DNA of 64,000 nucleotides from a bacterium (GCA_017431625.1 JAFRKQ010000009.1:11874-75873); one strand, 5' to 3'. Positions 16,747-34,520 are shown, numbered from the stretch's first letter. The notes: a model not told the origin generated them from the sequence alone. Made by a program: numbers and translations.

Positions 16747-16876
16747 TGAATTCTACTCCGAAACGCGACACCGAGGGGATAATTTAGGCAAATACCTGGG
16801 ATAGCTCACATTATTACAATATAATGATTACTAAATTAGCAATTTGATAATCATTATCAATTTGATACAATCTCAC
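16747..16876. repeat. 130-bp direct repeat, copy 2, containing a Fur box
   Basis: See copy 1; identical over about 130 bp. Confidence 0.9.
16844..16860. promoter_or_regulatory. Fur-box palindrome TTGATAATCATTATCAA inside repeat copy 2
   Basis: Perfect 7-1-7 Fur consensus. Confidence 0.5.
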
Positions 16877-16930
16877 CTTTTTGTTAAACGCGTGTTAAAC
16901 ACTCACATCTGGTTTTTGGTGACAAAATTA
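16874..16930 (+). repeat. cassette-boundary repeat R0 (5'-truncated variant): ttgttaaacgcgtgttaaacactcacatctggtttttggtgacaaaa
   Basis: Shares the tandem GTTAAACGC units and the ATCTGGTTTTTGGTGACAAAA block with R1-R9. Confidence 0.7.
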
Positions 16931-16951
16931 ATAACATTACCAATAAAAAAA

Positions 16952-19036
16952 CTATCGATTGGCCCAATACTCGCGCAATCCAGGAAGCATCGAGTCAAAT
17001 TCACTTCGATATTGCGCGATTAATTGCGTATCCAAATTACTAGTCGCAAAACGTTGCGGCGAAACTTGATTGGAACTCTCAGAATAAAAGTCTTCGCCCA
17101 TAAACGCACGCTGACCATAATCATCAAGCACAAATTGTTGATTATATTGCGGCAAGCCAAAACCACCATTACCATTGGTGGGATCAAAAATATAAATTTC
17201 TCCACCTTCGCCATTGTCATTGGGGATATTGACGCCCACATAGGCATGGCGACCTCGCACTTCACCTGTATCAGCGCGAGCGACCCCGCCCAAAGTGTAG
17301 CAATCATAACCAAGCCTTTCCATGACTGCGTGATAAACAGAGGAAAAGCCAGTGCAAATTGCTTGCTGTTCATCAAAAGCGCGCGACATCTCGTATGATT
17401 GTTGCTCTGAGGTGGGAATCGTAAATTTAATTGGTGTCTCGTAATAATTATGATCATAATTTATGAAGTGATGTAAATATTCATTAAGCAAGACACTAGT
17501 GCGAATTGTCTGAGCACGCCGCTGACTCGCCGGCACTTCACTGGCCGGCACCAGACCCAAAAGATCAATCGTATCTTGGATTCCCTCAGAGACGATGCGA
17601 TCACGTTCAGGTCTTTCACTGATAAATTGATCATAGACTTTGAGTCGCCAACTATATTCAGGATGCCCTGCCACCAACTGACGAAAAAAGGGGTCGCCAC
17701 CATAGTGACGCACGCTTTGCGATGCGGGCAAATTGCGGAAAAAGTGAGCTTGACCAGCTTGTGTCAAATAATAATGTTCCTGACCGTCGCTGCCAATTTG
17801 GCGGCGAGCCATAAGCCGAAAATATTCGCTCCCGCCAAAACGAGCTTCCACTTGCGCCGCCGGTGTCCGCGCCAAGTATTCTTCCATTGCCGAAAAATCA
17901 ACCTCTGGGGCATGTGGCAACTCGCCACCGGGGTACATATTCTCTGTGCGATCATCGATTGCTGAGAGCAATGTTGAGGTGTCATATTTAGTCGCATAAA
18001 AGTCTTCAATTCTTGAATGCGAACGGTGTGTCGAGTGATACTCCTGATAAGCCTTCACAACGGCCTGACTTAACTCATCGCGATAACGTTCGATAGCCGG
18101 GTTGCTAGTAACCAAAGGTGCCCGCCGCTTACCATCAGTCAGATAGGGAATCAAATCATCCTCATTGCCAGGCGCATGAGCCATGATCACCCGCATCGTA
18201 CTTGGGTCATAGCGGAAGTCCTCCGTTTGGAGCCAATTCTCGTCAACAGGCAACTGGTCATATTGTTCCTGGCGTTGATTGACTTGTTGGGCAGCTTCAA
18301 AAGCGCGCAAAAAACTGTGATCGCGGGCTCCGATTTGTCTTACTTGTTCAGGTGTCAAAGTATATTCCTGCTCGTGATCGCGCGCCACCACATCGCCATA
18401 AGCAAGAAAGTCAAATGTCAAAGTATCGTGATCAAAATTAAGCGAGTTAGTATCTATTTCTTCTTCCGGCTCTTCATCTGCGCGTTCGGCTGCCGCCTCC
18501 TCTTCTTGTAATTTTTGGTAAGCAGCTTTTAGGCGTTCATAAAATACAGGATCGCGTTCACAAATTCTCTTAATCTGATCAAAATTTAATTTCACATCGT
18601 AATTACGATCACCAACATAAATCTCACCGTGCAAACCAAAAACAAATTTCAAAGTGTCATGATCAAAAACTACTGTCTCCACATCCACTGTTGTCTGTTT
18701 GGGTTGTTCTGGCACTCCCAAAGATGACACTTCAGTAGATGGCGTTGGGGTACTAGCGCCACTTTCACGCAATGTTCGCAAAAACTCACGTCCACGCTGC
18801 GAGCCGCCATAGCGTTTGATAAAATCAGTCAAGCTCAAACTTTGCGTTTCGCCTGCGTATTTGATCACCACTGTCTGGCCACCATCAATACTGGATAAAT
18901 GGGCTTGCTCAAGAGGAATGGCAAAAGATGTGTTTTCCAATTCTGATTCGGGCTGCTCGTGATCGAGGGTCGGTAATTCTGAGTCAGTCGCCAAAAGACT
19001 CGGATCAAGGACGGCTGTTTCTGTTTGTGTTGACAT
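16952..19036 (-). CDS. large protein with internal ~50-aa repeats and a C-terminal transglutaminase-like cysteine-protease core
   Basis: C-terminus QAICTGFSSVYHAVMERLGYDCYTLGG...GRHAYVGV...IYIFDPTNG gives a Cys/His/Asp transglutaminase-like triad; repeats VVFDHDTLKFVFGLHGEIYVGDRNYDV and LNFDHDTLTFDFLAYGDVVARDHEQEY; promoter TTGGCA...TTATAAT at about 19040-19075 (minus). Confidence 0.65.
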   Translation of the reverse strand: MSTQTETAVLDPSLLATDSELPTLDHEQPESELENTSFAIPLEQAHLSSIDGGQTVVIKYAGETQSLSLTDFIKRYGGSQRGREFLRTLRESGASTPTPSTEVSSLGVPEQPKQTTVDVETVVFDHDTLKFVFGLHGEIYVGDRNYDVKLNFDQIKRICERDPVFYERLKAAYQKLQEEEAAAERADEEPEEEIDTNSLNFDHDTLTFDFLAYGDVVARDHEQEYTLTPEQVRQIGARDHSFLRAFEAAQQVNQRQEQYDQLPVDENWLQTEDFRYDPSTMRVIMAHAPGNEDDLIPYLTDGKRRAPLVTSNPAIERYRDELSQAVVKAYQEYHSTHRSHSRIEDFYATKYDTSTLLSAIDDRTENMYPGGELPHAPEVDFSAMEEYLARTPAAQVEARFGGSEYFRLMARRQIGSDGQEHYYLTQAGQAHFFRNLPASQSVRHYGGDPFFRQLVAGHPEYSWRLKVYDQFISERPERDRIVSEGIQDTIDLLGLVPASEVPASQRRAQTIRTSVLLNEYLHHFINYDHNYYETPIKFTIPTSEQQSYEMSRAFDEQQAICTGFSSVYHAVMERLGYDCYTLGGVARADTGEVRGRHAYVGVNIPNDNGEGGEIYIFDPTNGNGGFGLPQYNQQFVLDDYGQRAFMGEDFYSESSNQVSPQRFATSNLDTQLIAQYRSEFDSMLPGLREYWANR

Positions 19037-19217
19037 GACAAAACAATTATAACACGAAACAAAAGACTTGCCAAAATATATATGTGCCTCATACAGCCTC
19101 TTGACAAAACTGATGTCTTGTAATATACTACCAGTAGTTAGGGGACGAGTCGAGCCTCTAGTGGCTCATTAACATTACTTTTTCCTGACATAATTCCATA
19201 GAAAGAAGGCATTAGTT

Positions 19218-19871
19218 TTGTCATTGAAAATTCTCAATATTTCTGGACCATCCTGGATACAGGATCAGTCCGGCCAGAGGCTGTTTAATCGTGAGCTCAA
19301 CTCACAGACAGCCAGCATCTACTTGCGCACCCCGCCCGCTTGTCATCTCGAGTCAACACCATCACGACTGGTCTTAATCGACAGCCACCTGATCTTAGAG
19401 CCGACCACCTCCGAGCACAACGAGCGCCTGTTTCTGGTCAACCTGGCAGCAATCGGAGAACGCGATGACGATAATTACAACTACGACAAAGTCAATGACT
19501 TTATATTGGCCGAGGATTACTGTCGGCTTGTGGAGCACTGGTTTGTCGAGCGAATGATCGGCATCAACAAAAAAGGTAGGCAGCACTGTTTGTCCGTTCT
19601 CATTAAAGCCCTCACCAACGAAGCTCGGGTGGCGTTTTTCTTTAGCACCGAAGGCTGCAAACACATTCTGCTAGCATCCGATGTTCGCGGTATCCGCACT
19701 CATCATTTTGACACTGCGGTTTTTAGTCAGGACTTCATCTATGATCGGGTCCTCAAAGAAGTATATGACTGGACGAGTTTTCGTCTCGATGAGCTGAGCG
19801 TTTCCTCCAAAACTCCCATGACATATCTCGACAAAATAGTATCCAAACTGCGCCGGTCGCTGGGTCTTTAA
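19218..19871 (+). CDS. hypothetical protein (TTG start per ORF track; true start uncertain)
   Basis: 217-aa ORF preceded by a TTGACA, 17 bp, TAATAT promoter at 19110-19138 and an AGAAGG RBS. Confidence 0.45.
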   Translation: MSLKILNISGPSWIQDQSGQRLFNRELNSQTASIYLRTPPACHLESTPSRLVLIDSHLILEPTTSEHNERLFLVNLAAIGERDDDNYNYDKVNDFILAEDYCRLVEHWFVERMIGINKKGRQHCLSVLIKALTNEARVAFFFSTEGCKHILLASDVRGIRTHHFDTAVFSQDFIYDRVLKEVYDWTSFRLDELSVSSKTPMTYLDKIVSKLRRSLGL

Positions 19872-19909
19872 ACCCAGCCGATAGTGAGAAAAAGAGTATA
19901 TGTGAGCGT

Positions 19910-19937
19910 GCCGCCGGTGTTTGCCGGCGGTCTTTTT
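19910..19937 (+). terminator. rho-independent terminator
   Basis: gccgccgg-tgtttg-ccggcggtc followed by TTTTT. Confidence 0.7.
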
Positions 19938-20012
19938 GCCTCAGTGACCTAACTCCCAAGTTCCCACCCAAAACGCAACACTCCGCACCAGTACAAGATA
20001 ACTTAACACAAT

Positions 20013-20103
20013 GTAGACAAAATTTGTACAATTTCACTTTTTTGTTAAACGCATGTTAAACGCATACATCTGGTTTTTAGTGACAAAAATGGTGTTTTTG
20101 TGA
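20013..20103 (+). repeat. cassette-boundary repeat R1
   Basis: gtagacaaaatttgtacaatttcacttttttgttaaacgcatgttaaacgcatacatctggtttttagtgacaaaaatggtgtttttg. Confidence 0.9.
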
Positions 20104-20124
20104 TTTAATGTCTTGACAAATTAT

Positions 20125-21090
20125 CTATTCTTGTCCTAAAAGCTCCACTACCAAGGCCACCATCAAGTCTTTTTCCCGTGGGTTGGATTGAGCGATCAGG
20201 AGTGTTAGTGAGGTGAGAGCGATATTATTGATAATTGGTAGACCATCGCGATACAACATTCCATAAAAATCCAAAAAATAGATCAAAAGTGTGGCCGCAA
20301 TGCGCTTGTTGCCATCAGAAAATGGGTGGTTTTTGATGAGCAGATAAAAAAGATTGGCGGCTTTTTCTTCCAGCGTTGGATAGACATCTTGTCCACCAAA
20401 AGACTGATAAACGTTGCCCAAAATTGACTCCAGACCGCGTTCGCGCTCACTCCCAAAAAGATCGCTGATTTGTTTATATTTAAGACCAGCAATGACACTA
20501 AGACAACTCTTATAGGTAATCATTTTGTCACTCGTGCGCACCCCCTTACCAGAAAAGCGTTGCTCATCATAGCTTTCTAGGGTATCCAAAGCCCGATAAT
20601 AATGATTGATTAGCTGTAAAATTTGCTTGGCATTCTCGCCTTCAATCTCCTGGTCACGATTGGCAATTTCCAGCAATTTAACCGTTTTTTCTAGCATCTC
20701 CAGACGCTTTTGATTGATGGCGACACCTTTGAGCATATAATCTTTGAGCACTTTATTGGCCCAAATGCGAAATTGTGTGCCCTGTGGCGACTTGACGCGA
20801 TAGCCAACAGAAATAATGACATCAAGGTTATAATACTCGACACTATATGTCTTGTTATCAGCGGCAGTTGTTGCAAAAAATGCAACAACTGAGTTTTTAT
20901 TCAACTCGCCTTCGTCAAAAATATTATTAATATGTCGAGAAATAGTGGTTTTATCACGGCCAAAAAGCTGAACCATTTGCGCCTGCGACAGCCACACGGT
21001 TTCGTCCTGAAGATTAACTTCCAGCTTTACCTTTTGATTTTCAAAAATAATGATTTCGTTTTTGTCCTGCATAGGCTTATTATAACACAC
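20125..21090 (-). CDS. Fic/Doc family protein with N-terminal RhuM-like domain
   Basis: C-terminal Fic motif HPFSDGNKRIAATLL (HPFx[DE]GNxR); N-terminus IIIFENQKVKLEVNLQDETVWLSQAQMVQLFGRDKTTISRHINNIF is RhuM-like; start possibly the ATG at 21072. Confidence 0.8.
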   Translation of the reverse strand: MCYNKPMQDKNEIIIFENQKVKLEVNLQDETVWLSQAQMVQLFGRDKTTISRHINNIFDEGELNKNSVVAFFATTAADNKTYSVEYYNLDVIISVGYRVKSPQGTQFRIWANKVLKDYMLKGVAINQKRLEMLEKTVKLLEIANRDQEIEGENAKQILQLINHYYRALDTLESYDEQRFSGKGVRTSDKMITYKSCLSVIAGLKYKQISDLFGSERERGLESILGNVYQSFGGQDVYPTLEEKAANLFYLLIKNHPFSDGNKRIAATLLIYFLDFYGMLYRDGLPIINNIALTSLTLLIAQSNPREKDLMVALVVELLGQE

Positions 21091-21288
21091 ATTTTAGATA
21101 AATTACGAGCCAAAACTACAAGCTACCAAACACAATACCATTTGTCAAATTTTTATCACGTTTGTTATTGTTTTTACCCGGGGAGACCACGAAACACGAT
21201 AGCAAAAAAAACTAAAGACGACAATGTTGTGACACCAGGCTATCACCAAAAGCGAGGTCAAACTTAGCTTCAAGCGGTTCTTTTAAAA

Positions 21289-21378
21289 TGTATACAAAAT
21301 TTGTACAATTTCACTTTTTTGTTAAACGCGTGTTAAACGTGTATATCTGGTTTTTAGTGACAAAAATTTGGTTTTTGT
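21289..21378 (+). repeat. cassette-boundary repeat R2 (in a divergent promoter region)
   Basis: tatacaaaatttgtacaatttcacttttttgttaaacgcgtgttaaacgtgtatatctggtttttagtgacaaaaatttggtttttg. Confidence 0.9.
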
Positions 21379-21447
21379 AAATTGATAGTTACCAGAAATT
21401 AATTATTGCCTCTCTTTTGAAAACTTTCGGGGTCATAATCATAATTT

Positions 21448-21708
21448 TTGTGTTATAATATAGCGGCAATGATAAAATTGTCAGGAACGCAGTCTATGAG
21501 TTATGACGCTTTAGTACAAGACATTAGCACTCTTCCCAAGGAGTATTTTCCCGAAGTGGCTCATTTTCTTGAGCTGCTTAAATTTAAGGTGATGGTACAA
21601 ACACACCAACAACCATCTTCATTGCGTCAACTGGGTGGCTTTGAAGGCCAAATAAAAATAGCTGATGATTTTGATGACACCCCAACAGGTTTTGAGGACT
21701 ATTTATAA
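21448..21708 (+). CDS. VapB-like antitoxin (DUF2281-like) of a type II TA pair
   Basis: Small ORF ending ...GGFEGQIKIADDFDDTPTGFEDYL whose stop overlaps the vapC start (TAATG); true start probably an internal ATG (MSYDALVQDISTLP...). Confidence 0.55.
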   Translation: MCYNIAAMIKLSGTQSMSYDALVQDISTLPKEYFPEVAHFLELLKFKVMVQTHQQPSSLRQLGGFEGQIKIADDFDDTPTGFEDYL

Positions 21709-22082
21709 TGTATATTATTGACACACATGTGCTATTGTGGTTACTGTCAGATCCAGACAAACTCTCACGCACAGCCAAACAAGTTTTGCAACGTGAACGA
21801 CTTTTTGTTAGTATAGCTTCATTATGGGAGATTGCGATCAAACAAAGTAATGGTAAATTAGAGTTGCCACTGACGCCCCAACAGTTGTCTAACGTTTGTC
21901 TGAGTCGCGATATTCAACTCAAGCAAATCCTACCAAACCATTTATGCCAGCTGCGTGAGCTACCAAAAATTCACAGTGATCCTTTTGACCGTTTGATCAT
22001 TTGTCAAGCCATAGCAGATAAAATCTCAATTGTCACTCATGACACCAAAATTGCTCGTTATAATATTGCGACAGTTTGGTAA
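21708..22082 (+). CDS. vapC: PIN-domain toxin VapC
   Basis: MYIIDTHVLLWLL...SIASLWEIAIK...DPFDRLIICQA...VTHD carries the PIN acidic residues. Confidence 0.85.
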   Translation: MYIIDTHVLLWLLSDPDKLSRTAKQVLQRERLFVSIASLWEIAIKQSNGKLELPLTPQQLSNVCLSRDIQLKQILPNHLCQLRELPKIHSDPFDRLIICQAIADKISIVTHDTKIARYNIATVW

Positions 22083-22095
22083 ACTATTACTTAAT

Positions 22096-22186
22096 GTAGA
22101 CAAAATTTGTACAATTTCACTTTTTTGTTAAACGCGTATTAAACGTGTATATCTGGTTTTTGGTGACAAAAATGGTGTTTTTGTTT
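22096..22186 (+). repeat. cassette-boundary repeat R3
   Basis: gtagacaaaatttgtacaatttcacttttttgttaaacgcgtattaaacgtgtatatctggtttttggtgacaaaaatggtgtttttg. Confidence 0.9.
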
Positions 22187-22198
22187 TTTTGATTGCTT

Positions 22199-22678
22199 TT
22201 ATTTTTCAAATTTAACTGTGATGTTTTCATTCCCTATATGCTCTAAATTGTCAAGATGACCTATTTTGGTATAACTATATGATGTAGCAAATGATTTATA
22301 AAAGATGACTAGACAATTATCCCCATAAAGCATAACATCGCCTTTTTCAATCTGTTTGGGATTGTACGGATTTGAAGTTAACGGCTCATCCAGATAAGCA
22401 AATTTTTCATTGCCATTTAATTCATTCATTAAAAATTCTTTTGGCAACAGATTAAAAAATTCTGTTGCTGTTTGATTATTCTCAAGTTGTAGCGTGTAAG
22501 TTTCATCGCCGATGATCACCTTCACTTCTCGCATTTCTTGCTCACTTTCCTGAATACTATCCTCTATCAAGGCAACATCACTGATTGTGTCATCTGGTAA
22601 GTTTTCGTTGCTAGGTCTATTGGCAATAGCGACAATCGACACTAGACCACCAATCAAGATTAACAAGACTTTGTACAT
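22199..22678 (-). CDS. cyclophilin-like (PF04126-type) small secreted/lipo-anchored protein
   Basis: N-terminal signal/anchor MYKVLLILIGGLVSIVAIA; pattern VKVIIGDETYTLQLENNQTATEF...KGDVMLYGDNCLVIFYK resembles the cyclophilin-like fold family often paired with hydrolases; abuts the next gene with no gap. Confidence 0.45.
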   Translation of the reverse strand: MYKVLLILIGGLVSIVAIANRPSNENLPDDTISDVALIEDSIQESEQEMREVKVIIGDETYTLQLENNQTATEFFNLLPKEFLMNELNGNEKFAYLDEPLTSNPYNPKQIEKGDVMLYGDNCLVIFYKSFATSYSYTKIGHLDNLEHIGNENITVKFEK

Positions 22679-23667
22679 TAGCTCAAGTGTCTATTTAAGA
22701 ATTCTTCAATTTTAGCAAACGGAATTTTATCTTTTTGATCATACAAATCCGTGTGGGTCGCCCCTGGCACGACCACAAATTCTTTGTTGCTAGTATATTT
22801 AGAGTCTTTAATCATCTGATCGTAAGCATCCTTGCCCATATAAAATGAATGCGCTTTATCCCCATGAATAATCATCAGCGCATTTCTAATTTCATTGGCA
22901 TAATGAAATAATCTAACATTCATCATTGAAGTGTTAGTTTGGATGGCCCAACCATTATTAGAATTAAGACTTCTGTTATGATAGCCTCTGGGGGTTTTGT
23001 AGTAGGCATGATAGCCTTGCAAAAATTCTGGCGCATTTGCCGGCAAGGGATCAATCACACCACCAGCCAAAGCATAATTGCCACTGGCCAAATCTTTATT
23101 TCTTTGATTATTCAAGCTAACTCTTTGGCTATATCGAGCTTCCTCATTATCTTGTTCGTCAAAATACCCATTGCCCGCCACTCTCGACATGTCGTACATC
23201 GTGGAGACAATCGTAGCCTTGATTCTGGTATCAATGCAAGCGGTTTGTAGTGCCATACCACCCCAACCACAGATGCCAATAATGCCGATTTTTTCGCTAT
23301 CGACATTGTCAAGGCTGATTAAATAATCTACGGCCGCTTGAAAGTCCTCCACATTGATGTCGAAAGCTGTCATATAGCGAGGATGACCGCCTGACTCTCC
23401 TGTAAATGAAGGATCGAAAGCAATACTCAAAAAGCCTCTTTCAGCCATCTCTTGAGCGTACAAGCCGCTCGCTTGTTCTTTGACTGCGCCATAAGGGCCC
23501 GCCACCGCTAACGCTGGTAATTTACCGGTATAATCTTTGGGCGTGTACATGTCGGCCACCAAGGTGATGCCAAAATGATTGGTAAAAGTGACTTTTTGAT
23601 GATTAACTTTATCACTTTGCGGAAAAACTTTGTCCCATTCCTGAGTTATTTTTAATTCTTCTTGCAT
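22678..23667 (-). CDS. alpha/beta hydrolase, dienelactone-hydrolase-like (Cys nucleophile)
   Basis: IGIIGICGWGG nucleophile elbow (GxCxGG), downstream Asp/His region ...MIIHGDKAHSFYMG. Confidence 0.7.
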   Translation of the reverse strand: MQEELKITQEWDKVFPQSDKVNHQKVTFTNHFGITLVADMYTPKDYTGKLPALAVAGPYGAVKEQASGLYAQEMAERGFLSIAFDPSFTGESGGHPRYMTAFDINVEDFQAAVDYLISLDNVDSEKIGIIGICGWGGMALQTACIDTRIKATIVSTMYDMSRVAGNGYFDEQDNEEARYSQRVSLNNQRNKDLASGNYALAGGVIDPLPANAPEFLQGYHAYYKTPRGYHNRSLNSNNGWAIQTNTSMMNVRLFHYANEIRNALMIIHGDKAHSFYMGKDAYDQMIKDSKYTSNKEFVVVPGATHTDLYDQKDKIPFAKIEEFLNRHLS

Positions 23668-23873
23668 GATCTATCCTTTCCCCAACTTTGCGGCTATTAT
23701 ACCATGGAAAAAGAAGCTTTTGGCAATTTGTTGCGTTGAGATTGGCCTATCTACTATTAATTCCCACGTTTTCAAAGATTTTGTGACTGTAAACACAGAC
23801 TTCATTTGCCCAATCGAAAACAATTGATGATAGCCATGGAAGTAGTCATACTATTGACACGGTTCAATTGTGT

Positions 23874-23965
23874 GTAGACAAAATTTGATCAATTTCACTT
23901 TTTTGTTAAACGCGTGTTAAACGTACACATCTGGTTTTTAGTGACAAAAATGGTGTTTTTGTTTT
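23874..23965 (+). repeat. cassette-boundary repeat R4
   Basis: gtagacaaaatttgatcaatttcacttttttgttaaacgcgtgttaaacgtacacatctggtttttagtgacaaaaatggtgtttttg. Confidence 0.9.
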
Positions 23966-24046
23966 TTATGGTAGCAGTTAATTTTACCAAAACAATTGTC
24001 CTGATCAAATATTTTTGTCACAATGTAAATTCAAAGTTGTGGTATA

Positions 24047-24586
24047 ATGCACGTCATGAAGTTCTATCTCGTACGCCATGGCCAAACTGATTACAATGTC
24101 AAACACATCGTTCAAGGTTGGTCTGATGTACCACTCAATAGTGTCGGCAAGGAGCAAGCGGTTCAAGTAGCATTGATGATGTGTGATTATCATGTGGATG
24201 CTGTTTTTGCTTCGGATCTGTTGCGTGCCAAACAAACTGCCGAACCAATAGCTGCTAAGTTGGGATTACCAGTGACTTACAGTTGGTTGTTGCGGGAACG
24301 TTATTTTGGCGCTCTCGAGGGCACTGATAGTGACCAGATAGATTGGGATAAAGTCAATGCTAATGGACTGGAAATTCAAGCCCAAGGTGTCGAAAGCCGG
24401 GCTCACTTAGACGATCGCATTCGTCAATTTGTCAGCGACCTTCAACTTTGGCCCAATCCACCGCACTCCATTGTGGTGATCACTCATGGCGGTACTATGA
24501 ATCACTTTTGTAGCTGTTTTCTGCCAAAACATGAGTTTTGTCATTTTAACAATACTCAGATAGTGGAATTGACGCTTGAGGATTAA
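24047..24586 (+). CDS. histidine phosphatase family (phosphoglycerate-mutase-like) protein
   Basis: FYLVRHGQTDYN...G.SDVPL..VGKEQA is the RHG catalytic motif; likely start MKFYLVRHG at 24056; promoter TTGTCA...TGgTATAAT at 24015-24044. Confidence 0.8.
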   Translation: MHVMKFYLVRHGQTDYNVKHIVQGWSDVPLNSVGKEQAVQVALMMCDYHVDAVFASDLLRAKQTAEPIAAKLGLPVTYSWLLRERYFGALEGTDSDQIDWDKVNANGLEIQAQGVESRAHLDDRIRQFVSDLQLWPNPPHSIVVITHGGTMNHFCSCFLPKHEFCHFNNTQIVELTLED

Positions 24587-24595
24587 CTGTCAACC

Positions 24596-24672
24596 AAAAC
24601 ACGATATCATTTACCGATTCTTTATCGCGTTTGCTATCACTTCTGCCTGGGGAGACCACAAACGCGATACTA
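24596..24672 (+). repeat. partial copy (E-b) of the larger composite repeat element
   Basis: aaaacacgatatcatttaccgattctttatcgcgtttgctatcacttctgcctggggagaccacaaacgcgata matches the 5' half of 29237-29396. Confidence 0.75.
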
Positions 24673-24815
24673 AATAACTAAAGGCTATAGTGTTTTGGCC
24701 GACGCGAAAAAGTTTTTCAATTAGACTTGAAAAGTTGGTGATGATAACGCAATCGCGCTGACTGCTACCGACATATGTACTGTTAAAATCGTGATATTAT
24801 GATATAATCGCTCAT

Positions 24816-26534
24816 ATGACTCAGAATAAAGCGAGAGTAAAAAGACACTGGCACGTACTTGTGTTAGCTTTAATTATCGCGCTGGCAAGTTTTTTCCGAC
24901 TCTGGCATTTAAACCAGCTACCTTATGCCCTTCACGATGACGAAGTCTGGAATGCCTATCTGGGCAAATTTATTATTTTAAATCATCAAGATGTCAACGG
25001 TCAGAAGTGGCCGTGGCTTTATTCAGATAAATTTGGCGATTATCCGCCAGTACTACCCATGTATTTATCTGGTCTCACCGCGATTTTTTTTGGCGACAAT
25101 GCCCTAGCTGTGCGTTTGCCGATTGCCATTTGTGGCATTATTAATGTAATCACCGTTTATTTTTTGGCGAAGTTTTTATTTGCTGATACTCGAGCGGCAC
25201 TGGTAGCCACTTTGTTTATGGCTATTTGCCCTTGGCACGTTATTCTCTCGCGCGCTACAGCAGAAAATATCGTTGCTACCAGTGTATTTTCACTAGGTAT
25301 ATTAGTGCTCTTTACAGCTTTGGAAAAGCAAAAAGTTTCTGGCAAACTATTGGTGTCATTATTATTGCTCCTGACTACTTATTTGCTTTATCCGAGTTAT
25401 CGGGTGTTAATACCTTTATTTTTATTGCCGACATTTTTACTTACACCGCCAAAGTCATTAATTCGTCAATGTATGGTGACGGCTACTATTGTTGCTTTTG
25501 GCTTGACATTCATAATCGGCCACACTGATTGGGGCAAAGGACGCTATGATCAAATTTCTATCTGGACACATGGTGGTGAAATTGCCGGCAAGTCGCTTAA
25601 TTATTCACTTGCCCTCGGTCCAGGTCGAGTTTTGGAAGCGAGAATTTTTAATAATAAATATGTTTTAGTAGCAAGAGAATTTTTGCGACAGTATAGCACC
25701 TATTTTTCTGCGCAGTTTCTTGCTGGCGAAGGGTTTATGGAGCCGAAGCGTTATCATCTGATTGAGCATGGAGTCGCTTATTGGTCATTGATTTTGGTAA
25801 TAATTCTTTTTGTGTTGGTGCAAATTGTCAGACCCTACACACTACCACAATTGTCAGCAACTTTCAAACGTCAAAGGTGGCGGTATTTTTTGCTATTGTT
25901 GTGGTTTTTATTGATAGCGCCATTGCCAGCCGCACTGACACTCGAGGAAGTTCCCAATATTCATCGGACTCTAGGAATGGTTGTGGTTTGGTCTTTACTT
26001 TTTGGTTGGTTAACATGTCGGCTATTGGCAGCCAAGCTCACAAGACACTGGTTGATGATAGCCGCTGTTGGTCTCGGACTAGTATTTTGTAGCGAGGCGA
26101 TTTATTTTTGGCACACTTACACCACATTGGACTATGAGAGTAATTTTATTTATCGCGATGATGCCAAAAAACTTATCAGCGAGTGGTTACTGGCCCAGCA
26201 TGACGAGAAAATACCAATTCTCATTCCTCAAGCTGGCAATTTAATTCTTCATTACTTGTTTTTTGGTGGCAATTACGACCCATCGTTGGTGGGCCAATTT
26301 GAAGATGGCTTGAGCATTGAGGTCTTCCATCATTTACATCCAGTTTTTGATCCTTGCAAGCAAGCCCAAAAAATTCTCAAATTACAACCAAACGAAAAAA
26401 TATTGGTCGTGAGTGAGCAAGACAATTGTGAAGGTTTGGTTTTGCGTGACAAAATTGTCAGACACAACTTGACCGATGCTTATTATATTTGGGAAGCAAG
26501 TCGCGAGGGAATATTGCCAGTCAACGAACTTTAG
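24816..26534 (+). CDS. GT-C fold glycosyltransferase (ArnT/PMT family, GT39/GT83-like) polytopic membrane protein
   Basis: More than 10 predicted TM helices; conserved DE motif in the first extracytoplasmic loop (LHDDEVWNAYLGKF). Confidence 0.65.
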   Translation: MTQNKARVKRHWHVLVLALIIALASFFRLWHLNQLPYALHDDEVWNAYLGKFIILNHQDVNGQKWPWLYSDKFGDYPPVLPMYLSGLTAIFFGDNALAVRLPIAICGIINVITVYFLAKFLFADTRAALVATLFMAICPWHVILSRATAENIVATSVFSLGILVLFTALEKQKVSGKLLVSLLLLLTTYLLYPSYRVLIPLFLLPTFLLTPPKSLIRQCMVTATIVAFGLTFIIGHTDWGKGRYDQISIWTHGGEIAGKSLNYSLALGPGRVLEARIFNNKYVLVAREFLRQYSTYFSAQFLAGEGFMEPKRYHLIEHGVAYWSLILVIILFVLVQIVRPYTLPQLSATFKRQRWRYFLLLLWFLLIAPLPAALTLEEVPNIHRTLGMVVVWSLLFGWLTCRLLAAKLTRHWLMIAAVGLGLVFCSEAIYFWHTYTTLDYESNFIYRDDAKKLISEWLLAQHDEKIPILIPQAGNLILHYLFFGGNYDPSLVGQFEDGLSIEVFHHLHPVFDPCKQAQKILKLQPNEKILVVSEQDNCEGLVLRDKIVRHNLTDAYYIWEASREGILPVNEL

Positions 26535-26537
26535 GAC

Positions 26538-26664
26538 ATCGTGTTTACCACTCTGCCTGAAATACCTGCGAAACGCGATATGAAATGGCCAAAGACTATC
26601 ATGTTTGGGCTAGCGTGGGCCGCCAAAAGTGAGGATAAATTAATTTCAACGTGTTTTTGATAAT
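26538..26664 (+). repeat. partial copy (E-c) of the larger composite repeat element, contiguous with R5
   Basis: ctctgcctgaaatacctgcgaaacgcgatatgaaatggccaaagactatcatgtttgggctagcgtgggccgccaaaagtgaggataaat...tttgataat nearly identical to the 3' half of 29237-29396. Confidence 0.8.
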
Positions 26665-26756
26665 ATAGACAAAATTTGATCAATTTCACTTTTTTGTTAA
26701 ACGCATGTTAAACGTATACATCTGGTTTTTAGTGACAGAAATGGGGTTTTTGTTTT
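26665..26756 (+). repeat. cassette-boundary repeat R5
   Basis: atagacaaaatttgatcaatttcacttttttgttaaacgcatgttaaacgtatacatctggtttttagtgacagaaatggggtttttg. Confidence 0.9.
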
Positions 26757-26840
26757 TTATGGTAACGACTAATTTTACCACAACAATTGGCCTGATTAAA
26801 AATTTTTGTCAGTTGACACATAAAGCAGTGTCGCAATATT

Positions 26841-26871
26841 CTTTGCCCGCGCTCAATCGAGCGCGGGCAAA
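26841..26871. promoter_or_regulatory. perfect 14-bp-arm palindrome ctttgcccgcgctc-aatc-gagcgcgggcaaag in the conserved 3' module of the Fibrobacter-paralogous-domain gene family
   Basis: Recurs at 31541-31571 and 63129-63159, always about 40 bp 3' of a family member's stop; no U-tract, so not a classic terminator. Confidence 0.6.
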
Positions 26872-26909
26872 GACGAAACGAAATCAGGAAAAGTATTAAG
26901 ACTACAAAA

Positions 26910-29236: not shown

Positions 29237-29396
29237 CAAAACACGATATCATTTACCGATTCTTTATCGCGTTTGCTACTACTTCTGCCTGAAATACTCA
29301 CGAAACGCGATATCAAATGACCAAAGACTATCGTGTTTGGGCTAGCGTGGGCCGCCAAAAGTGAGGATAAATAAATTTCAACCTGTTTTTGATAAT
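29237..29396 (+). repeat. most complete copy (E-d) of a ~160-bp composite element with nested inverted repeats, contiguous with R6
   Basis: Outer inverted repeat aaacacgata/tatcgtgttt and inner atcgcgttt/aaacgcgat; partial copies at 21150-21205, 24596-24672 and 26538-26664. Confidence 0.8.
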
Positions 29397-29486
29397 GTAG
29401 ACAAAATTTGTACAATTTCACTTTTTTGTTAAACGCGTGTTAAACGCGTGTTAAACGCGTATATCTGGTTTTTGGTGACAAAAATG
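29397..29486 (+). repeat. cassette-boundary repeat R6 (three GTGTTAAACGC units)
   Basis: gtagacaaaatttgtacaatttcacttttttgttaaacgcgtgttaaacgcgtgttaaacgcgtatatctggtttttggtgacaaaaatg. Confidence 0.9.
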
Positions 29487-29596
29487 TATGTGCCTCGTTC
29501 AAAGTGTTGACGTTTCGCCAACAAATCTTTATAATGCGGATCATTAGCCTCATCGGGGTTGTTCGCAGCCATCACGATCATCTGTTCTCCATCGCA

Positions 29597-29638
29597 GTAG
29601 AGAACAAACTAGCATTTGTTCCCCAGTAGACTAGAGAA
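29597..29638. repeat. 40-bp direct repeat with internal palindrome gaacaaa-ctagca-tttgttc (copy at the 3' end of the ATPase gene)
   Basis: tagagaacaaactagcatttgttccccagtagactagagaag; second copy at 31122-31170. Confidence 0.8.
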
Positions 29639-31085
29639 GTAAAAACATTGACAGCGGCAAATTGACAAACTGTCCACCCGGATCCAACTGCAGTGGCGAC
29701 TGACTAACTGTTATCCCTAGGCTATACTTGAGATTGTGCCGCGCGATGCTAGCCGCTACTTGTTCACTGCCCTTAGTACCGCTACCCACCTCCAGCACCA
29801 AGGCTTGCTGCTTTTCGTGAATATCCACGATGAAGTCAGCACAGTTTTTGGCGGCATCATAGGTGAGAGCATATGAATAACCTCGCCGTGTCAGTAATTT
29901 TGTCAGATACATCGCCATCGTATCTTCACAAACTTTGGCGCGTAGATCGGCTGGTGTCAACGTCGTCCCCAATAAATTCAGATACATCGAGCGAAATGCC
30001 GGCGCAGCAAAGAGATATTTTGACGCCTTGCGTACCTGCACTCCCACATTGCCATACGGTGCCAACCGGTAGATCAAACCAGATAATTCCAGTGTATCCA
30101 GCATTTGTTGCAAGGTGGTGGGACTTAAGCGTAAATCATGGGCAACGTTATCAACGGCTGTAACATCGTTATTGGTAAGCAGATAAATCAATCGGGCAAA
30201 CATATTCAGTGTTGCCGGACTAAAAGTCTGCAGTTGGGCAATATCTTTACCGATGATCGTATCTACGGTCTTTTTTAGCTGATCATAAGCAACTCCAAGA
30301 TTGTGTAACCGCAGCAATGAAGGCAAGGTACCTATTTCCAAATATTTGTTGATCGTAATTTCTTGAGGAAAAGTGGCATAAAAACGACGTACCGGGCCTA
30401 TACAACGCTTAAAATAGTACATCGCCTCCTTCCCAGTGTTGCTACCCAGCAAACCCTCACGCAGCTGCGCTGTCACCTCCAGTGGCAGTGTTTGGCGATG
30501 GATAAGCCGGACGTACTCACGGAAAGATAAAGGATAGATCGTTTCAAAAATCGCCCGCCGACTAATATCTGCATTCGTTTGTAACTGGAGAGCTGCCGAG
30601 CCAGTGGCAGCCACAAACACCCGTCGTGACCGATCATATAAGTTTTTGATAGTTATCGCCCAGTCTGGGTCATATTGCACTTCATCCAAAAAAATGTACA
30701 CTGGCGGCCCGTTTTGGGTAAAACTTTCGCCCAACAGAGTTTCGTAAGCGGCTAACACTTGTCCTAGCGTCACTCCCAATTGGCGTGTCACCTCGTCCAC
30801 CGATAGATAGATTTTGTGCAAAGGAGCAGCTTTGATCTGGTCGAGCAATTGCATAAGCAGTGTCGTTTTGCCCAAGCCCCGCAAGCCACTGATCACCAAC
30901 CACCTCCAGGCAGCATTACCGGCTTCAAAAGCATCCAAGTGCTGTGCCAGGCGGCCATAGACATCGCGGCGTGGCAAGGGTGCGCCAGCATCGTCAGTTG
31001 TGTAATTAACACATCTAGCCGTCAGTTCCATCAGTTGACGTTGTAAATAAGCAGTGAGTTGATTTTGTGTCTCTTGTGTGATCAT
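29631..31085 (-). CDS. AAA+ ATPase (AAA_14/DUF4143-type ATP-binding protein)
   Basis: Walker A VISGLRGLGKTTLL, Walker B IFLDEVQ; visibly more GC-rich than neighbouring cassettes. Confidence 0.75.
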   Translation of the reverse strand: MITQETQNQLTAYLQRQLMELTARCVNYTTDDAGAPLPRRDVYGRLAQHLDAFEAGNAAWRWLVISGLRGLGKTTLLMQLLDQIKAAPLHKIYLSVDEVTRQLGVTLGQVLAAYETLLGESFTQNGPPVYIFLDEVQYDPDWAITIKNLYDRSRRVFVAATGSAALQLQTNADISRRAIFETIYPLSFREYVRLIHRQTLPLEVTAQLREGLLGSNTGKEAMYYFKRCIGPVRRFYATFPQEITINKYLEIGTLPSLLRLHNLGVAYDQLKKTVDTIIGKDIAQLQTFSPATLNMFARLIYLLTNNDVTAVDNVAHDLRLSPTTLQQMLDTLELSGLIYRLAPYGNVGVQVRKASKYLFAAPAFRSMYLNLLGTTLTPADLRAKVCEDTMAMYLTKLLTRRGYSYALTYDAAKNCADFIVDIHEKQQALVLEVGSGTKGSEQVAASIARHNLKYSLGITVSQSPLQLDPGGQFVNLPLSMFLLL

Positions 31086-31121
31086 ACCTTAGATTATACC
31101 ACATTTTGTTCCCTAATACAA

Positions 31122-31170
31122 TAGAGAACAAACTAGCATTTGTTCCACAGTATACTAGAGAACAAAACCA
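31122..31170. repeat. direct repeat with palindrome gaacaaactagcatttgttc (copy upstream of the ATPase gene; extra half-sites ttgttcc/agagaacaaa nearby)
   Basis: atagagaacaaactagcatttgttccacagtatactagagaacaaaacc. Confidence 0.8.
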
Positions 31171-31363
31171 TACGATGGTGCTAATTGCCCTCTGGTGTCA
31201 CCTGCTTGTACATACGATCAGCGCGCAAAATTCTCACTAAAAATGAGACTGGAAACATAACGAGTCTCCTTATACAATAGTATTGTTACAAAGTACTAGA
31301 GAAAAGCCTAAGTTCCAACCTAAAACGCGACACTCAACACTAACATAAGATTATTTAAACAGT

Positions 31364-31455
31364 GTAGACAAAATTTGTACAATTTCACTTTTTTGTTAAA
31401 CGCGTGTTAAACGTGTAACTATGGTTTTTGGTGACAAAAATGTGGTTTTTGTAAT
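31364..31455 (+). repeat. cassette-boundary repeat R7
   Basis: gtagacaaaatttgtacaatttcacttttttgttaaacgcgtgttaaacgtgtaactatggtttttggtgacaaaaatgtggtttttg. Confidence 0.9.
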
Positions 31456-31540
31456 TTATGGCAGTGGTTAATTTTACCAAAAACAATTGGCCTCATTAAA
31501 TACTTTTGTTAGTTGACACACACGACAGTGTCGCGATATT

Positions 31541-31571
31541 CTTTGCCCGCGCTCCAAGAGCGCGGGCAAAG
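31541..31571. promoter_or_regulatory. perfect palindrome ctttgcccgcgctc-caa-gagcgcgggcaaag (second copy)
   Basis: See 26841-26871. Confidence 0.6.
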
Positions 31572-31603
31572 ATGAAACGAAATAAGAAAAGTATTAAGAC
31601 TGC

Positions 31604-31700
31604 AAACTTAAATGCCTAAATAAACAGACAGCTGGGTGATGCGGGCGGCACCATGACCAGTGTGACCCAATTCTTCCTCGCCACTCGGAGCAAGAAAAAT
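31604..31700 (-). pseudogene. decayed 3'-terminal remnant of a glycine-rich paralogous-domain family gene
   Basis: taaatgcctaaataaacagacagctgggtgatgcgggcggcaccatgaccagtgtgacc aligns with the 3' end of the 63195-63992 gene (taaatgcccagataaacagacagctgagtaatccgggcggcaccatttccggtatgacc); no ORF remains. Confidence 0.5.
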
Positions 31701-32746: not shown

Positions 32747-33104
32747 AAACCATTGCTAATTATAGCACATGTTCAAATGGTTTAAAAGTTGCCAGAATAA
32801 TTTCTAGCAAATATTCTAAGATGTGATAAATATTGCTCATTTAGGTGGTTTCATCACTTGCCAGTCAATAAACTTTTCTCCTGTATTTGTACTGCAAATT
32901 TTTTTCTACCTGAAAAATTAATTTCTTATGCAATGGTCATGCAAAATTACTCCCACGTGTGGCAAAGCGTATCGACTCATGCGAATAGTAGTCAACCAGT
33001 TTGTCTATTTACAAATCATAGTAAAGCGCAATGTCTTTTTGCCTTTTTGACCTGCCCCATTTTTACAGCTTGCTATCATGAACTGCGCCTGTTTTGCATT
33101 TTAT

Positions 33105-33172
33105 CATTTTTGTTAAACGCGTGTTAAACGTACACATCTGGTTTTTGGTGACAAAAATGGGATTTTTGTTTT
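33105..33172 (+). repeat. cassette-boundary repeat R8 (5'-truncated)
   Basis: tttttgttaaacgcgtgttaaacgtacacatctggtttttggtgacaaaaatgggatttttg. Confidence 0.85.
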
Positions 33173-33405
33173 TTAGCATCTAGTAAGTTTTTGTGATATT
33201 TGGTGAAACTAATAAAGAAATTGCGAGAATGTATCGCAAAAAAGATTAAGACAAATCATTCCTGCAAAAATTGCGACAATAAAATATAATTTGATATGTT
33301 ACAATACCGACATTTCGCAGTCGCGTTGGCCCTGGGTTAAGTCTGCCGGGGAGATCTCACATCAAGACAACAGATAGTTGTCATAAAATAAAAAGAAAGA
33401 ACAAT

Positions 33406-34434
33406 ATGCAAAATATAGCACTTGAGCACATCCATACTAAAAATATCGTTGACGACGCCCGGCAAATCATTCAAACAGCTCGGGCTAATGCCACTAGAAG
33501 CATTGACTTTAATCGCGTGCAAATGTATTGGTGTTTAGGTCGGCGAATTTTTGAGGAAGAACAACAAGGCAAAGACCGGGCAAATTACGGCACATATCTA
33601 ATAAAAAAGCTTGCTAATTCCTTAGAAAAGGAGTACGGTAGCGGTTTTTCCGAACGGCAATTAAAATTTTGTCGTCAGTTTTACCGACTTTACCCAATTG
33701 GGAACGCAGTGCGTTCCCAATTGAATTGGACTCAATATCGTTTGTTAATCCAAATTTCTGACCCCGACAAACGTGAGTATTACGAACTCGAGTCGGTCAA
33801 CAATTCCTGGACAGCTCGAGAAACAGAAAGACAAATTAACAGTCAACTTTACGAGCGACTTCTTCTGAGCAATGATAAAGAATCTGTTTTGGCGATCGCC
33901 AGAAAAGAACGCCTTCCTGATAGACCGCAAGAGGTGATTAAAGACCCAATGGTGTTAGAGTTTTTAGGACTTGATCGTCAAGCCTCTTACTACGAAAAAG
34001 ATTTAGAAAGCGCGATTATTTCGCATCTAACTGATTTTTTGTTAGAAATGGGCAAAGGTTTTTGTTTTGTAGCGCGCCAAAAAAGAATCATCATAGAGGA
34101 TGACGAGTTTTTCATCGATTTGGTTTTGTACAATCGATTACTTAGATGTTTTGTCATTGTGGAACTCAAAACTGGAAAACTTACTCACCAAGATCTCGGA
34201 CAGCTACAAATGTATGTCAACTACTATGACCGCCAAGAAAAACTACCACAAGAAAATGACACTATTGGTGTCTTACTCGGGACAAGCAAAAATGACACCG
34301 CAGTCAAAATGACTTTACCAAAAGACAATCAAACAATTATGACTGGTGAATACCAGCTTTATTTGCCAAGTACTGAGCAATTGGCGAAAGCAGTCGAAGA
34401 AGTCAAGCAATTAGCGCAGTTCAGTTTTATGTAG
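33406..34434 (+). CDS. YhcG-like protein (DUF1016 N-terminal domain plus PD-(D/E)XK nuclease-like C-terminal domain), copy 1
   Basis: GKGFCFVARQKRIIIEDDEFFIDLVLYNRLLRCFVIVELKTGKLTHQDLGQLQMYVNYYD is the D...E.K core typical of the YhcG family; stop codon supplied by R9 (atgTAGacaaaa). Confidence 0.75.
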   Translation: MQNIALEHIHTKNIVDDARQIIQTARANATRSIDFNRVQMYWCLGRRIFEEEQQGKDRANYGTYLIKKLANSLEKEYGSGFSERQLKFCRQFYRLYPIGNAVRSQLNWTQYRLLIQISDPDKREYYELESVNNSWTARETERQINSQLYERLLLSNDKESVLAIARKERLPDRPQEVIKDPMVLEFLGLDRQASYYEKDLESAIISHLTDFLLEMGKGFCFVARQKRIIIEDDEFFIDLVLYNRLLRCFVIVELKTGKLTHQDLGQLQMYVNYYDRQEKLPQENDTIGVLLGTSKNDTAVKMTLPKDNQTIMTGEYQLYLPSTEQLAKAVEEVKQLAQFSFM

Positions 34435-34520
34435 ACAAAATTTGATCAATTTCACTTTTTTGTTAAACGCGTGTTAAACGTACACATCTGGTTTTTGGTG
34501 ACAAAAATTGGATTTTTGTA
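34431..34520 (+). repeat. cassette-boundary repeat R9
   Basis: gtagacaaaatttgatcaatttcacttttttgttaaacgcgtgttaaacgtacacatctggtttttggtgacaaaaattggatttttg. Confidence 0.9.

Follow-up and report, generated by a model that had tools for sequence, protein, structure and literature searches.

The 64,000-nucleotide stretch of bacterial DNA analysed here (GCA_017431625.1 JAFRKQ010000009.1:11874-75873, referred to below as the window) carries an intergenic repeat of approximately 97 bp that bounds one-operon units of accessory and defence-type genes within a low-GC island. The repeat family comprises eleven co-oriented copies, ten of them good (R0-R9) and one a relic (R10), together with an orphan half-copy. 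We tentatively favour reading the element as an att-like, double-stranded recombination or boundary site of a non-integron chromosomal cassette array, overlaid by homologous recombination. The host is a member of the Candidate Phyla Radiation (CPR)/Patescibacteria and belongs to a sparsely sampled lineage.

An unbiased repeat search of the window recovered the eleven-copy family (R0-R10) at the coordinates of an earlier, preliminary description, and the claim made there of eleven same-orientation copies was borne out by pattern, shuffle and profile searches, which agree. The degenerate pattern GTTAAACGNNTRTTAAACNNNNNNNTNTGGNTTTTNGTRACA, which covers the iterons and the first palindrome of the element, gave eleven matches, all on the + strand, and none in 100 shuffles. 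The right block alone gave ten matches where 0 were expected, and the 9-mer TGTTAAACG occurred 21 times in the window, always on the + strand, against an expectation of 0.66. A profile hidden Markov model search of the whole 64 kb with all filters off found the same eleven copies and no further relics, with matches starting at 23874, 34431, 20013, 22096, 26666, 31364, 21290, 33086, 16856, 46320 and 29397, the last of these (R6) being split in two by an extra iteron. Co-orientation regardless of gene direction, also noted in the preliminary description, held for 11/11 copies (P ~0.001 under random orientation). All copies are intergenic and together they span 13-46.4 kb of the window, an island of about 33 kb, with 0 copies in the approximately 30 kb of core DNA that flanks the island within the window. 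Spacing from R0 to R9 is 806-3161 bp with every copy on the + strand, and the copies are mutually 85-93% identical. The array had been taken to begin at about 16.9 kb; its start moves to near 13.0 kb because the orphan half-copy lies at 13115-13135 in a 137-bp duplication.

Element positions are counted from the first T of the penultimate iteron, which is position 0. The conserved element runs from -31 to about +65, with a left edge that is sharp at -31 (TGTAGAC…) and a right edge that is fuzzy. The left block (-31 to -1) reads TGTAGACAAAATTTG(TA/AT)CAATTTCACTTTTT and holds an ACAAA-A-TTTGT palindrome, and a -10-like TACAAT within it is lost in the GAT variant of R4, R5 and R9. Iterons occupy 0 to +21 as two TGTTAAACGYR units at 11-bp spacing; the unit is corrected to TGTTAAACG(C/T)(G/A), and of the 2-3 units described previously two are present per copy and the third is found in R6 alone. 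A hypervariable patch at +20 to +24 differs in 2-4 of nine copies by transitions only, with pyrimidine-purine alternation kept. The segment from +25 to +58, ATCTGG-TTTTT(G/A)-GTGA-CAAAAA-(variable 5 nt)-TTTTTGT, has T-, A- and T-tracts in succession, phased at 11 bp, that form two overlapping palindromes, and these tracts, at about +33, +44 and +55, carry on the 11-bp phasing of the iterons. The second palindrome, ACAAAAA-N5-TTTTTGT, is the sole strong dyad of the element (8/11); a T-run follows it in four copies, and an A/T-rich tail extends after +58 to about +65. The three conserved blocks of the preliminary description are real, and the element is longer than was described there, passing beyond the third block into the second palindrome.

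In nine good copies the sequence from -31 to +58 is near-invariant except for the hexamer, +10, +36 and the palindrome spacer. Because blanket gene conversion would also homogenise the hexamer and the spacer, this pattern points to sequence-specific constraint on the iterons and the palindrome arms, and protein binding at both would be implied. The copies and their immediate context are as follows, with the tRNA gene beside the island given last.

13115-13135 (inside 12999..13135), + strand: orphan half-copy, R0-type left block TTTGATACAATCTCACTTTTT, no iterons
16856..16928, + strand: R0, variant left block, two iterons, hexamer CTCACA, first palindrome; tandem junction
20012..20108, + strand: R1, full copy, hexamer CATACA; convergent junction between the 217-amino-acid gene (forward) and the RhuM/Fic gene (reverse)
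21289..21385, + strand: R2, full copy, hexamer TGTATA; divergent junction
22095..22191, + strand: R3, full copy, hexamer TGTATA; convergent junction between the PIN gene (forward) and the cyclophilin-like gene (reverse)
23873..23969, + strand: R4, full copy, hexamer TACACA; divergent junction
26664..26760, + strand: R5, full copy, hexamer TATACA; convergent junction
29396..29487, + strand: R6, left block, three iterons, hexamer CGTATA, first palindrome; tandem junction
31363..31459, + strand: R7, full copy, hexamer TGTAAC; tandem junction
33092..33176, + strand: R8, left block diverged, core and right end complete, hexamer TACACA; divergent junction
34430..34526, + strand: R9, full copy, hexamer TACACA; convergent junction
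46320..46396, + strand: R10, relic scoring 57 bits against the profile, iterons kept, right palindromes lost, left block diverged
46180..46254, - strand: tRNA-His, from whose 3' side the low-GC island runs leftwards

Homology among the copies ends at recurrent positions. The left edge (-31, just before TGTAGAC) is the same joining base in five unrelated left-flank classes and in a sister strain described below. R0 and R6 are followed by unrelated downstream sequences, yet both lose homology inside the second-palindrome spacer, at +46 and +49 respectively, and lack the right end. The relic R10 lacks the right half as well; it lies beside a core gene, with the EpmA stop (46432) on one side and the promoter of tRNA-His on the other, and three other assemblies have it in identical form. 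The orphan copy breaks off exactly at …CACTTTTT^TGTTAAACG, the junction of left block and first iteron, and this same junction in R0 is the right boundary of the 137-bp duplication. The duplicated segments (12999-13135 and 16745-16881) are ~99% identical, the duplication looks recent, and the segments bracket a gene of 1188 amino acids. The stop codon of this gene shares bases with the end of the orphan left block.

Between 16.9 and 34.5 kb the repeat stands at 10/11 transcription-unit boundaries. The convergent and divergent junctions of the preliminary description are both present (R1, R3, R5 and R9; R2, R4 and R8), and tandem junctions occur too (R0, R6 and R7). No consistent role in gene expression is indicated, since the copies are spread over all three junction types. 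The units have their own promoters of the host's usual extended -10 type (TGTGGTATAAT) outside the repeat. Pfam assignments agree with the accessory and defence gene content claimed for the intervals between copies, which includes transglutaminase-like, RhuM/Fic, DUF2281 with PIN, cyclophilin-like with hydrolase, histidine phosphatase with PMT_2, Fib_succ/ALK_LTK_GRD, AAA_14/DUF4143, YhcG and AlkD-like genes. Copies lying in core operons with no link to variable gene content, which had been named in advance as evidence against a cassette-like array, were not seen; core copies were absent and variable content was associated with the repeat. Core genes have a GC content of 46-53% and the region from ~20 to 46 kb one of 35-42%, while GC content at third codon positions is 0.31-0.58 in the island units and 0.50-0.58 in core genes, and the spread among the units fits independent acquisitions.

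The adjoining core gene encodes an EpmA-like protein whose best homolog beyond the same strain has 66% identity. Its named homologs belong to Cerribacteria, Pacebacteria, Woesebacteria and Microgenomates. Patescibacteria of the first three types are nearest, sharing 42-48% identity; an affiliation with Saccharibacteria, suggested previously, is not shown. Two relatives with S21-BipA-EpmA synteny continue with core genes after EpmA and have no island and no repeat.

A comparison of strains, as proposed in the preliminary description, found a different neighbouring unit with the breakpoint at the edge of the repeat. A homolog search with RhuM/Fic identified a protein of 89% amino-acid identity (P0122) in a sister strain, and contigs of that strain from four independent assemblies and studies (L055-L058) were aligned to window positions 20011-21355. 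The sister strain is ~3% diverged outside one hypervariable patch of ~200 bp in the RhuM/Fic gene; this patch (window 20790-20989 against L055) is ~30% divergent compared with ~3% for the remainder of the gene, which indicates a recombinant or diversifying segment. The RhuM/Fic unit of the sister strain has the repeat on both sides (profile matches of 83.5 and 57.7 bits). Homology takes in the 3' end of RhuM/Fic and the whole of the R1-like copy, and it is lost at the outermost left-block base. Past this outer edge, the sequence of L055 and L056 is unrelated and includes a gene for an AAA_14 ATPase (Pfam E = 1.5e-18), where the window has the transglutaminase-like/217-amino-acid unit instead. 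The AAA_14 gene of the sister strain is not orthologous to the AAA_14 gene of the window, to which it has ~27% identity over a short stretch. The L056 contig was assembled with k=141, that is with k-mers longer than the ~97-bp repeat, and the adjacency of the AAA_14 gene would therefore be supported.

The R1-like copy of the sister strain shows 8 differences from R1, 6 of them at sites also variable among the paralogs, and 7-9 differences from R7, R9, R2 and R3, so that it is no closer to R1 than to these. The flank to its right is virtually identical to the R1 flank. Because the copy is equidistant from the paralogs while its flank matches that of R1, the repeat has been reassorted or converted relative to the flank since the strains split. 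The R2-like copy of the sister strain (L055 1-65) has the variant CACACC-TCTGGATTTT, which in the window is found only in the relic R10 (46350-46392), as CTCACC-TCTGGATTTT. In a third lineage (L139; RhuM/Fic at 80% amino-acid identity) homology is limited to the coding sequence with no flanking repeat, and the repeat therefore belongs to the array and not to the gene. The RhuM/Fic coding sequence of L139 is bracketed by a different short hairpin repeat, GTACTCCAAATGGAGTAC (~780-830 and 1850-1885).

An att-like site recognised by a protein is favoured because the element has a defined end, the constraint pattern noted above, an iteron-plus-palindrome architecture and recurrent internal breakpoints. 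In this model a unit would consist of a single operon that has a native-type promoter of its own and is flanked by directly repeated sites. A crossover between the two sites would release the unit as a circle with one copy, and the copy on the circle could then recombine with any copy in the array and re-insert the unit. Campbell-type directional insertion and excision of this kind would result in one copy per junction, co-orientation, independence from gene orientation and a change of neighbour at the edge. The 11-bp iterons, one helical turn apart, are candidate arm-type-like binding sites for a sequence-specific protein, the ACAAAA/TTTTGT palindromes are candidate binding sites as well, and the second palindrome with its variable spacer is the best candidate for the crossover core. 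A gene elsewhere in the genome would supply the recombining enzyme. On top of this process, the 85-93% identical copies may recombine in a RecA-dependent manner, which would give rise to mosaics, duplications and gene remnants. Among the three readings offered in the preliminary description, a recombination-site family fits best, an iteron-like protein-bound element may also apply and a miniature inverted-repeat transposable element (MITE) is unlikely.

One architectural parallel is the lambda-type attP, in which tandem, helically phased arm-type sites lie beside an inverted-repeat core with a variable spacer. The element resembles it in its phased direct repeats and its inverted-repeat motif with a variable spacer, and with such a site one would expect hybrid, truncated versions where an array ends. 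It differs from attP in its A/T-only stems, in breakpoints that lie beyond the putative core and in that neither an integrase nor an excisionase is encoded in the window.

Several observations weigh against a dedicated recombination site. Searches of the 64 kb with Pfam, NCBIfam and PHROGs detected neither a recombinase of the tyrosine or serine type nor a DDE transposase or HUH enzyme, in agreement with the preliminary description, which had reported no integrase in the window. A hidden recombinase among the unassigned proteins was sought in NCBIfam, PHROGs and PDB sequences, also with negative results; of the large island proteins without a family, one of 420 amino acids looks membrane-anchored and one of 409 amino acids looks acidic and secreted. 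For the strain of the window itself, contigs from six assemblies (L049-L054) keep the order of positions 18341-25785, covering R1-R4, at 99.9% identity and show no sign of ongoing shuffling. One polymorphic junction only was seen, and it could stem from homologous recombination. Breakpoints fall at several positions (-31; -1/0; -15 to +36 in R9; +46 to +49), and four-gamete incompatibilities occur throughout the core of the repeat. A YhcG 3' end lies left of R4, an ALK_LTK_GRD 3' end with its terminator lies right of R7, 58 bp of AAA_14 upstream sequence sits left of R1, and a left extension of ~200 bp is common to R0, R2, R5 and R6; such remnants and extended shared flanks are marks of imprecise or homologous events. 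Unrelated direct repeats of 137 bp, ~100 bp and 61-66 bp bracket other single island genes (the 1188-amino-acid gene, PMT_2 and AAA_14), which suggests a general homology-driven insertion process in this organism.

To these points is added that the collections scanned gave no related element in any other species and hence no sign of a conserved system. In 185,579 species-representative genomes a strict pattern gave 0 matches and a relaxed pattern 2 single chance matches. The element was not found in JGI metagenomes, the 33 matches in IMG/VR were seed-only and did not represent the element, and plasmid and phage collections held no match to it. None of 80 loci with distant RhuM/Fic homologs (JGI, <=60% identity) carries it, and its sole occurrences are in contigs of this species from ENA and Logan. 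By their names, the source metagenomes XIEF21-1, GLEN20-2, ERZ1667814/847 and SRR12529036 seem to come from rumen or gut. Look-ups of five proteins by exact sequence (EpmA, BipA, AAA_14, RhuM/Fic with a GTG start and the hydrolase) gave no match; EpmA and BipA have differently called start codons in other assemblies, and the hydrolase probably differs by one residue. A known origin, oriT or att site was likewise rejected as the identity of the repeat after no match in the plasmid and phage collections.

Homologous recombination clearly acts at the array. R5 is chimeric: its left flank is of R6 type, its element and right flank are of R4 type, and the two meet at the left edge of the element. 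In R9 the left part is of R4 type and the right part of R8 type. The YhcG stop codon TAG (34432-34434) falls within the left block of R9, and the left flank of R4 (23772-23872) is a remnant of a YhcG 3' end, while a right flank reaching to ~24020 in R4 is common to R4, R5 and R7. R2 has an extended left flank of ~170 bp (21114-21288) that includes a palindrome of ~100 nt. The right flank of R7 consists of a terminator hairpin and the 3' remnant of an ALK_LTK_GRD gene (31538-31667), which points to a unit that was duplicated and later deleted.

Several repeats other than the ~97-bp element were observed in the same region. The ~100-nt palindromic element is found at 21126-21230, 24595-24700, 26552-26660 (partial) and 29237-29340 with strong RNA folds (z = -2.3 to -4.3); the extended left flanks of R2, R5 and R6 include it, and two copies bracket PMT_2 as direct repeats. 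The 61-66-bp direct repeat (29583-29648 and 31107-31171, 83-84% identity) brackets AAA_14/DUF4143 inside the R6-R7 unit. A GC-rich terminator hairpin is common to three genes or gene remnants with the ALK_LTK_GRD glycine-rich domain (26839-26890, 31538-31589 and 63126-63177), and 31597-31667 is matched with 63184-63254, the copy right of R7 being only a 3' remnant of ~130 bp.

It is possible, though we think it unlikely, that the repeat is a passive linker of 'portable homology' with no dedicated enzyme, spread by unequal crossing-over and Campbell-type homologous integration and serving RecA as a substrate by which units are gained, lost and exchanged, for example after natural transformation, which has been proposed for Patescibacteria. 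Competence genes are reported to be prevalent in Patescibacteria (PMC12455944). Such a linker would explain why the copies form mosaics whose cores show four-gamete incompatibilities, why extended flanks are common to subsets of copies and gene remnants lie beside them, why unrelated direct repeats bracket the 1188-amino-acid gene, PMT_2 and AAA_14 and why no recombinase was found in 64 kb. The extra iteron of R6 is as expected of slipped or unequal exchange, and the sister-strain copy is equidistant from all paralogs, as from gene conversion. The sharp left edge common to five unrelated flank classes and the two independent truncations at the same palindrome spacer argue otherwise, and near-invariant blocks around hypervariable patches would not be preserved by conversion alone. 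The origin of the iteron/palindrome unit and the occupancy of nearly every junction are also left unexplained by a passive linker.

The 11-bp iterons, the T/A tracts in phase with them at ~+33, +44 and +55 and a spacer that varies by transitions only would suit a protein-bound, iteron-like boundary or regulatory element that insulates, silences or organises the island, its co-orientation being a by-product of array growth. Its restriction to the low-GC island and its location between transcription units at all three junction types are consistent with such a function. However, it takes no consistent place with respect to promoters and gene ends, with the promoters of the units lying outside it, and no candidate binding protein is encoded nearby. 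A symmetric insulator also gives no reason for the co-orientation, the recurrent truncations or the strain break at the edge, and we consider this explanation distinctly unlikely. Ter-like polar fork barriers find no support within the window, which has no GC-skew switch and a single orientation of the repeat.

Decayed ends of non-autonomous mobile elements (a MITE, one-ended or tandem Tn7-like ends or other transposon remnants) inserted repeatedly at a hotspot appear improbable. The sharp left terminus 5'-TGT followed by GACAAAA, the several internal repeated motifs, the short ACAAAA...TTTTGT inverted motif near both ends and the tRNA gene near the array are all reminiscent of such ends. No inverted second terminus was found before the next copy, however, the bases preceding TGT are not conserved, searches with the left block and with the right block give + strand copies only, no transposase gene lies in the window and plasmid and phage collection records show no similarity. 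A MITE would not be expected to cluster in 33 kb, keep one orientation (P ~0.001) and be missing from 30 kb of core DNA, and with an inverted motif of only 6 nt (ACAAAA/TTTTGT) in place of a convincing terminal inverted repeat, the MITE option of the preliminary description was set aside. Tn7-like ends, resembled in the TGT terminus and the GACAAAA and TTAAAC motifs, were rejected, an inverted partner end being absent. Repetitive extragenic palindromes and bacterial interspersed mosaic elements were rejected on weak folds, restriction to the island and the absence of a Y1 or HUH gene from the window.

A transcribed unit, whether a small RNA gene, a terminator or an attenuator, is very improbable. 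The T-run after the second palindrome in four copies, the capacity of the A-tract to pair with either T-tract and the -10-like TACAAT of the left block could be taken as its signature, but RNA folds (z = -1.5 and +0.6) are not better than those of shuffles, the stems are almost wholly A-U, TACAAT is destroyed in the GAT variant and the orientation is fixed whether genes start or end alongside. A small RNA or bidirectional terminator was rejected on these folds and on Rfam, where no family matched the element even at E up to 1; in Rfam 15 the window gave tRNAs and one chance rne5 match of 20.9 bits against a gathering threshold of 180 bits. A promoter in the left block was discarded for the lack of conservation of TACAAT, and a promoter spanning the iterons and the hexamer for the absence of the essential final T.

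A true integron array without an integrase, that is an attC-site cluster with no integron integrase (CALIN), with unusual attC sites is effectively refuted on structure: GTTAAAC fits GTTRRRY, cassette sizes and toxin-antitoxin and Fic content resemble those of sedentary integrons and all sites lie on one strand, but there is no R'' box and no imperfect hairpin on either strand, GTTAAAC recurs as tandem direct iterons, the genes face both ways with a promoter for each unit, no IntI gene lies in the window and complete integrons are reported to be lacking in very small genomes (PMC4889954). By boxes, GTTRRRY (R') occurs at two tandem positions and R'' (RYYYAAC) nowhere in the consensus. By fold, single-stranded DNA of three copies on both strands gave z = -0.2 to -1.2, no better than shuffles, with only local A/T stems of 6-7 bp. 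No PF00589-type protein was found within the 64-kb window. At least two same-strand sites <4 kb apart, a rule applied to integrons and CALIN, are present here, but this rule is generic and insufficient for membership, and the match of the repeat to the attC core noted in the preliminary description does not extend to integron membership.

The array nevertheless works most like sedentary chromosomal integron and CALIN arrays, such as those of the VCR type in Vibrio (definition from Cury et al. 2016, PMC4889954). Both have short units of 1-2 accessory genes, each separated by one site of ~60-130 bp, with highly similar sites on one strand and toxin-antitoxin and Fic cargo; both may exist without an adjacent integrase, and excision as a one-site circle is the natural logic of both. 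In contrast to integrons, the element has no R''/L''-L'/R' imperfect palindrome and no fold, its GTTAAAC motifs are direct 11-bp iterons, the genes run both ways from their own promoters, IntI, attI and Pc are absent from the window, gene remnants lie at the junctions and the host is a CPR bacterium with a tiny genome.

The pdif (XerC/XerD) sites of Acinetobacter are 28 bp with arms that have palindromic inner parts, and alternate in orientation around modules (PMC6449649). Like the units described here, dif modules contain 1-2 genes (toxin-antitoxin, Fic/DOC) bounded by short conserved sites in varied contexts, a variable 6-bp centre lies between conserved 11-bp stretches and the pdif recombinase is encoded elsewhere. 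Here, in contrast, the hexamer flanks are without dyad symmetry (2/11), the element is ~97 bp and all copies are direct. A dif/Xer site centred on the hexamer was rejected, as the 11-6-11 geometry gave 2/11 complementary positions against a random mean of 3.1 and there is no ATAA-N6-TTAT; the module arrangement also needs inverse sites, yet 11/11 copies are direct.

In the tycheposons of Prochlorococcus the repeated site is a partial tRNA and the elements or their remnants carry integrase genes (bioRxiv 10.1101/2020.12.28.424599). The likeness lies in a streamlined genome, an island beside a tRNA gene, cargo modules separated by direct repeats and older events that are pushed inwards and decay to remnants. 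The array differs in that no tRNA fragment is duplicated, the relic is on the 5' side of tRNA-His and no integrase gene or fragment was detected in the island by Pfam, NCBIfam and PHROGs. A tRNA-derived att site was accordingly rejected: no tRNA-His stretch of at least 14 nt is duplicated, and shared k-mers stem only from the promoter -10 motif. The array thus resembles sedentary integrons most in how it works, yet fails the defining structural tests of the integron, dif-module and tycheposon families.

The intergenic mosaic elements (dRS3) and the minimal mobile elements of Neisseria, the latter swapped by transformation, offer a further parallel, with short intergenic repeats that flank interchangeable genes in a naturally transformable organism. 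The Neisseria repeats are scattered throughout the genome and face both ways, and dRS3 measures 20 bp and has terminal inverted repeats. Short conserved intergenic repeats that flank interchangeable genes in a small genome and act as recombination substrates are common to both cases, whereas the repeat described here forms a single co-oriented array.

Other features of the region were also noted. A chloramphenicol acetyltransferase (CAT) gene (45491-46141) lies directly 3' of tRNA-His in the window and in a related lineage (L002/L003); it is >99% identical to the copy there (~9850-10660) although EpmA is only ~64% identical, and tRNA-His itself is ~90% identical. This indicates a recent horizontal transfer of CAT into a shared hotspot. 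In L002 an rve_3 transposase fragment follows CAT. It was considered whether the relic R10 marks the edge of a recently moved tRNA-His and CAT module, and this was rejected because CAT alone is >99% identical, tRNA-His being at the ~90% level of orthologs; the homology break at 46292 reflects the conservation of the tRNA promoter.

YhcG/DUF1016 PDDEXK-nuclease paralogs form a cluster (33406-34434, 40325-41413, 42260-43228 and 43849-44952) in addition to the 3' remnant at 23772-23872. Upstream of every paralog stands a conserved module of 230-260 bp with a divergent TGCTATAAT promoter; the modules were located at 40092-40322, 42010-42266, 43588-43845 and 36129-36201, and a related module stands beside the YhcG genes of the relative L002 (15276-15350 and 17811-17885). 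A family of strong promoters, TTGACA-N17-TGTGATATAAT with flanks, occurs at 12938-12999, 51586-51647, 59637-59698 and 62297-62358 (minus strand) and also in the relative L047 (17510-17559 and 18599-18648), whose EpmA is ~64% identical. Window positions 1-5000 form a second low-GC patch (35-40% GC) in which a GmrSD-type restriction gene adjoins tRNA-Asn and tRNA-Trp, and which may be another tRNA-linked accessory region. A T4SS-pilin gene is located at 7736-8167.

Genomes in the CPR/Patescibacteria are tiny and streamlined, and very few mobile elements are recognised in them. Published work on gene acquisition in Patescibacteria invokes competence, conjugation and phages in general terms (PMC12455944), and very small genomes reportedly have no integrons (PMC4889954). 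An island with a structured, co-oriented site at almost every operon-sized unit would be a concrete substrate for cassette exchange in CPR bacteria, whether by a new recombinase or by RecA after transformation. The array could conceivably represent a previously unknown CPR/Patescibacteria cassette system, analogous to integrons in function and unrelated in mechanism, in which a recombinase encoded elsewhere acts on a ~97-bp att-like site and reshuffles promoter-bearing cassettes in either gene orientation, although we regard this as a doubtful proposition at present. If a dedicated enzyme exists, the enzyme and its ~97-bp site would constitute a new site-specific recombination system from a lineage with scarce genetic tools. 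If there is no such enzyme, the array would be a clean natural example of the repeat-mediated modular evolution of a defence island.

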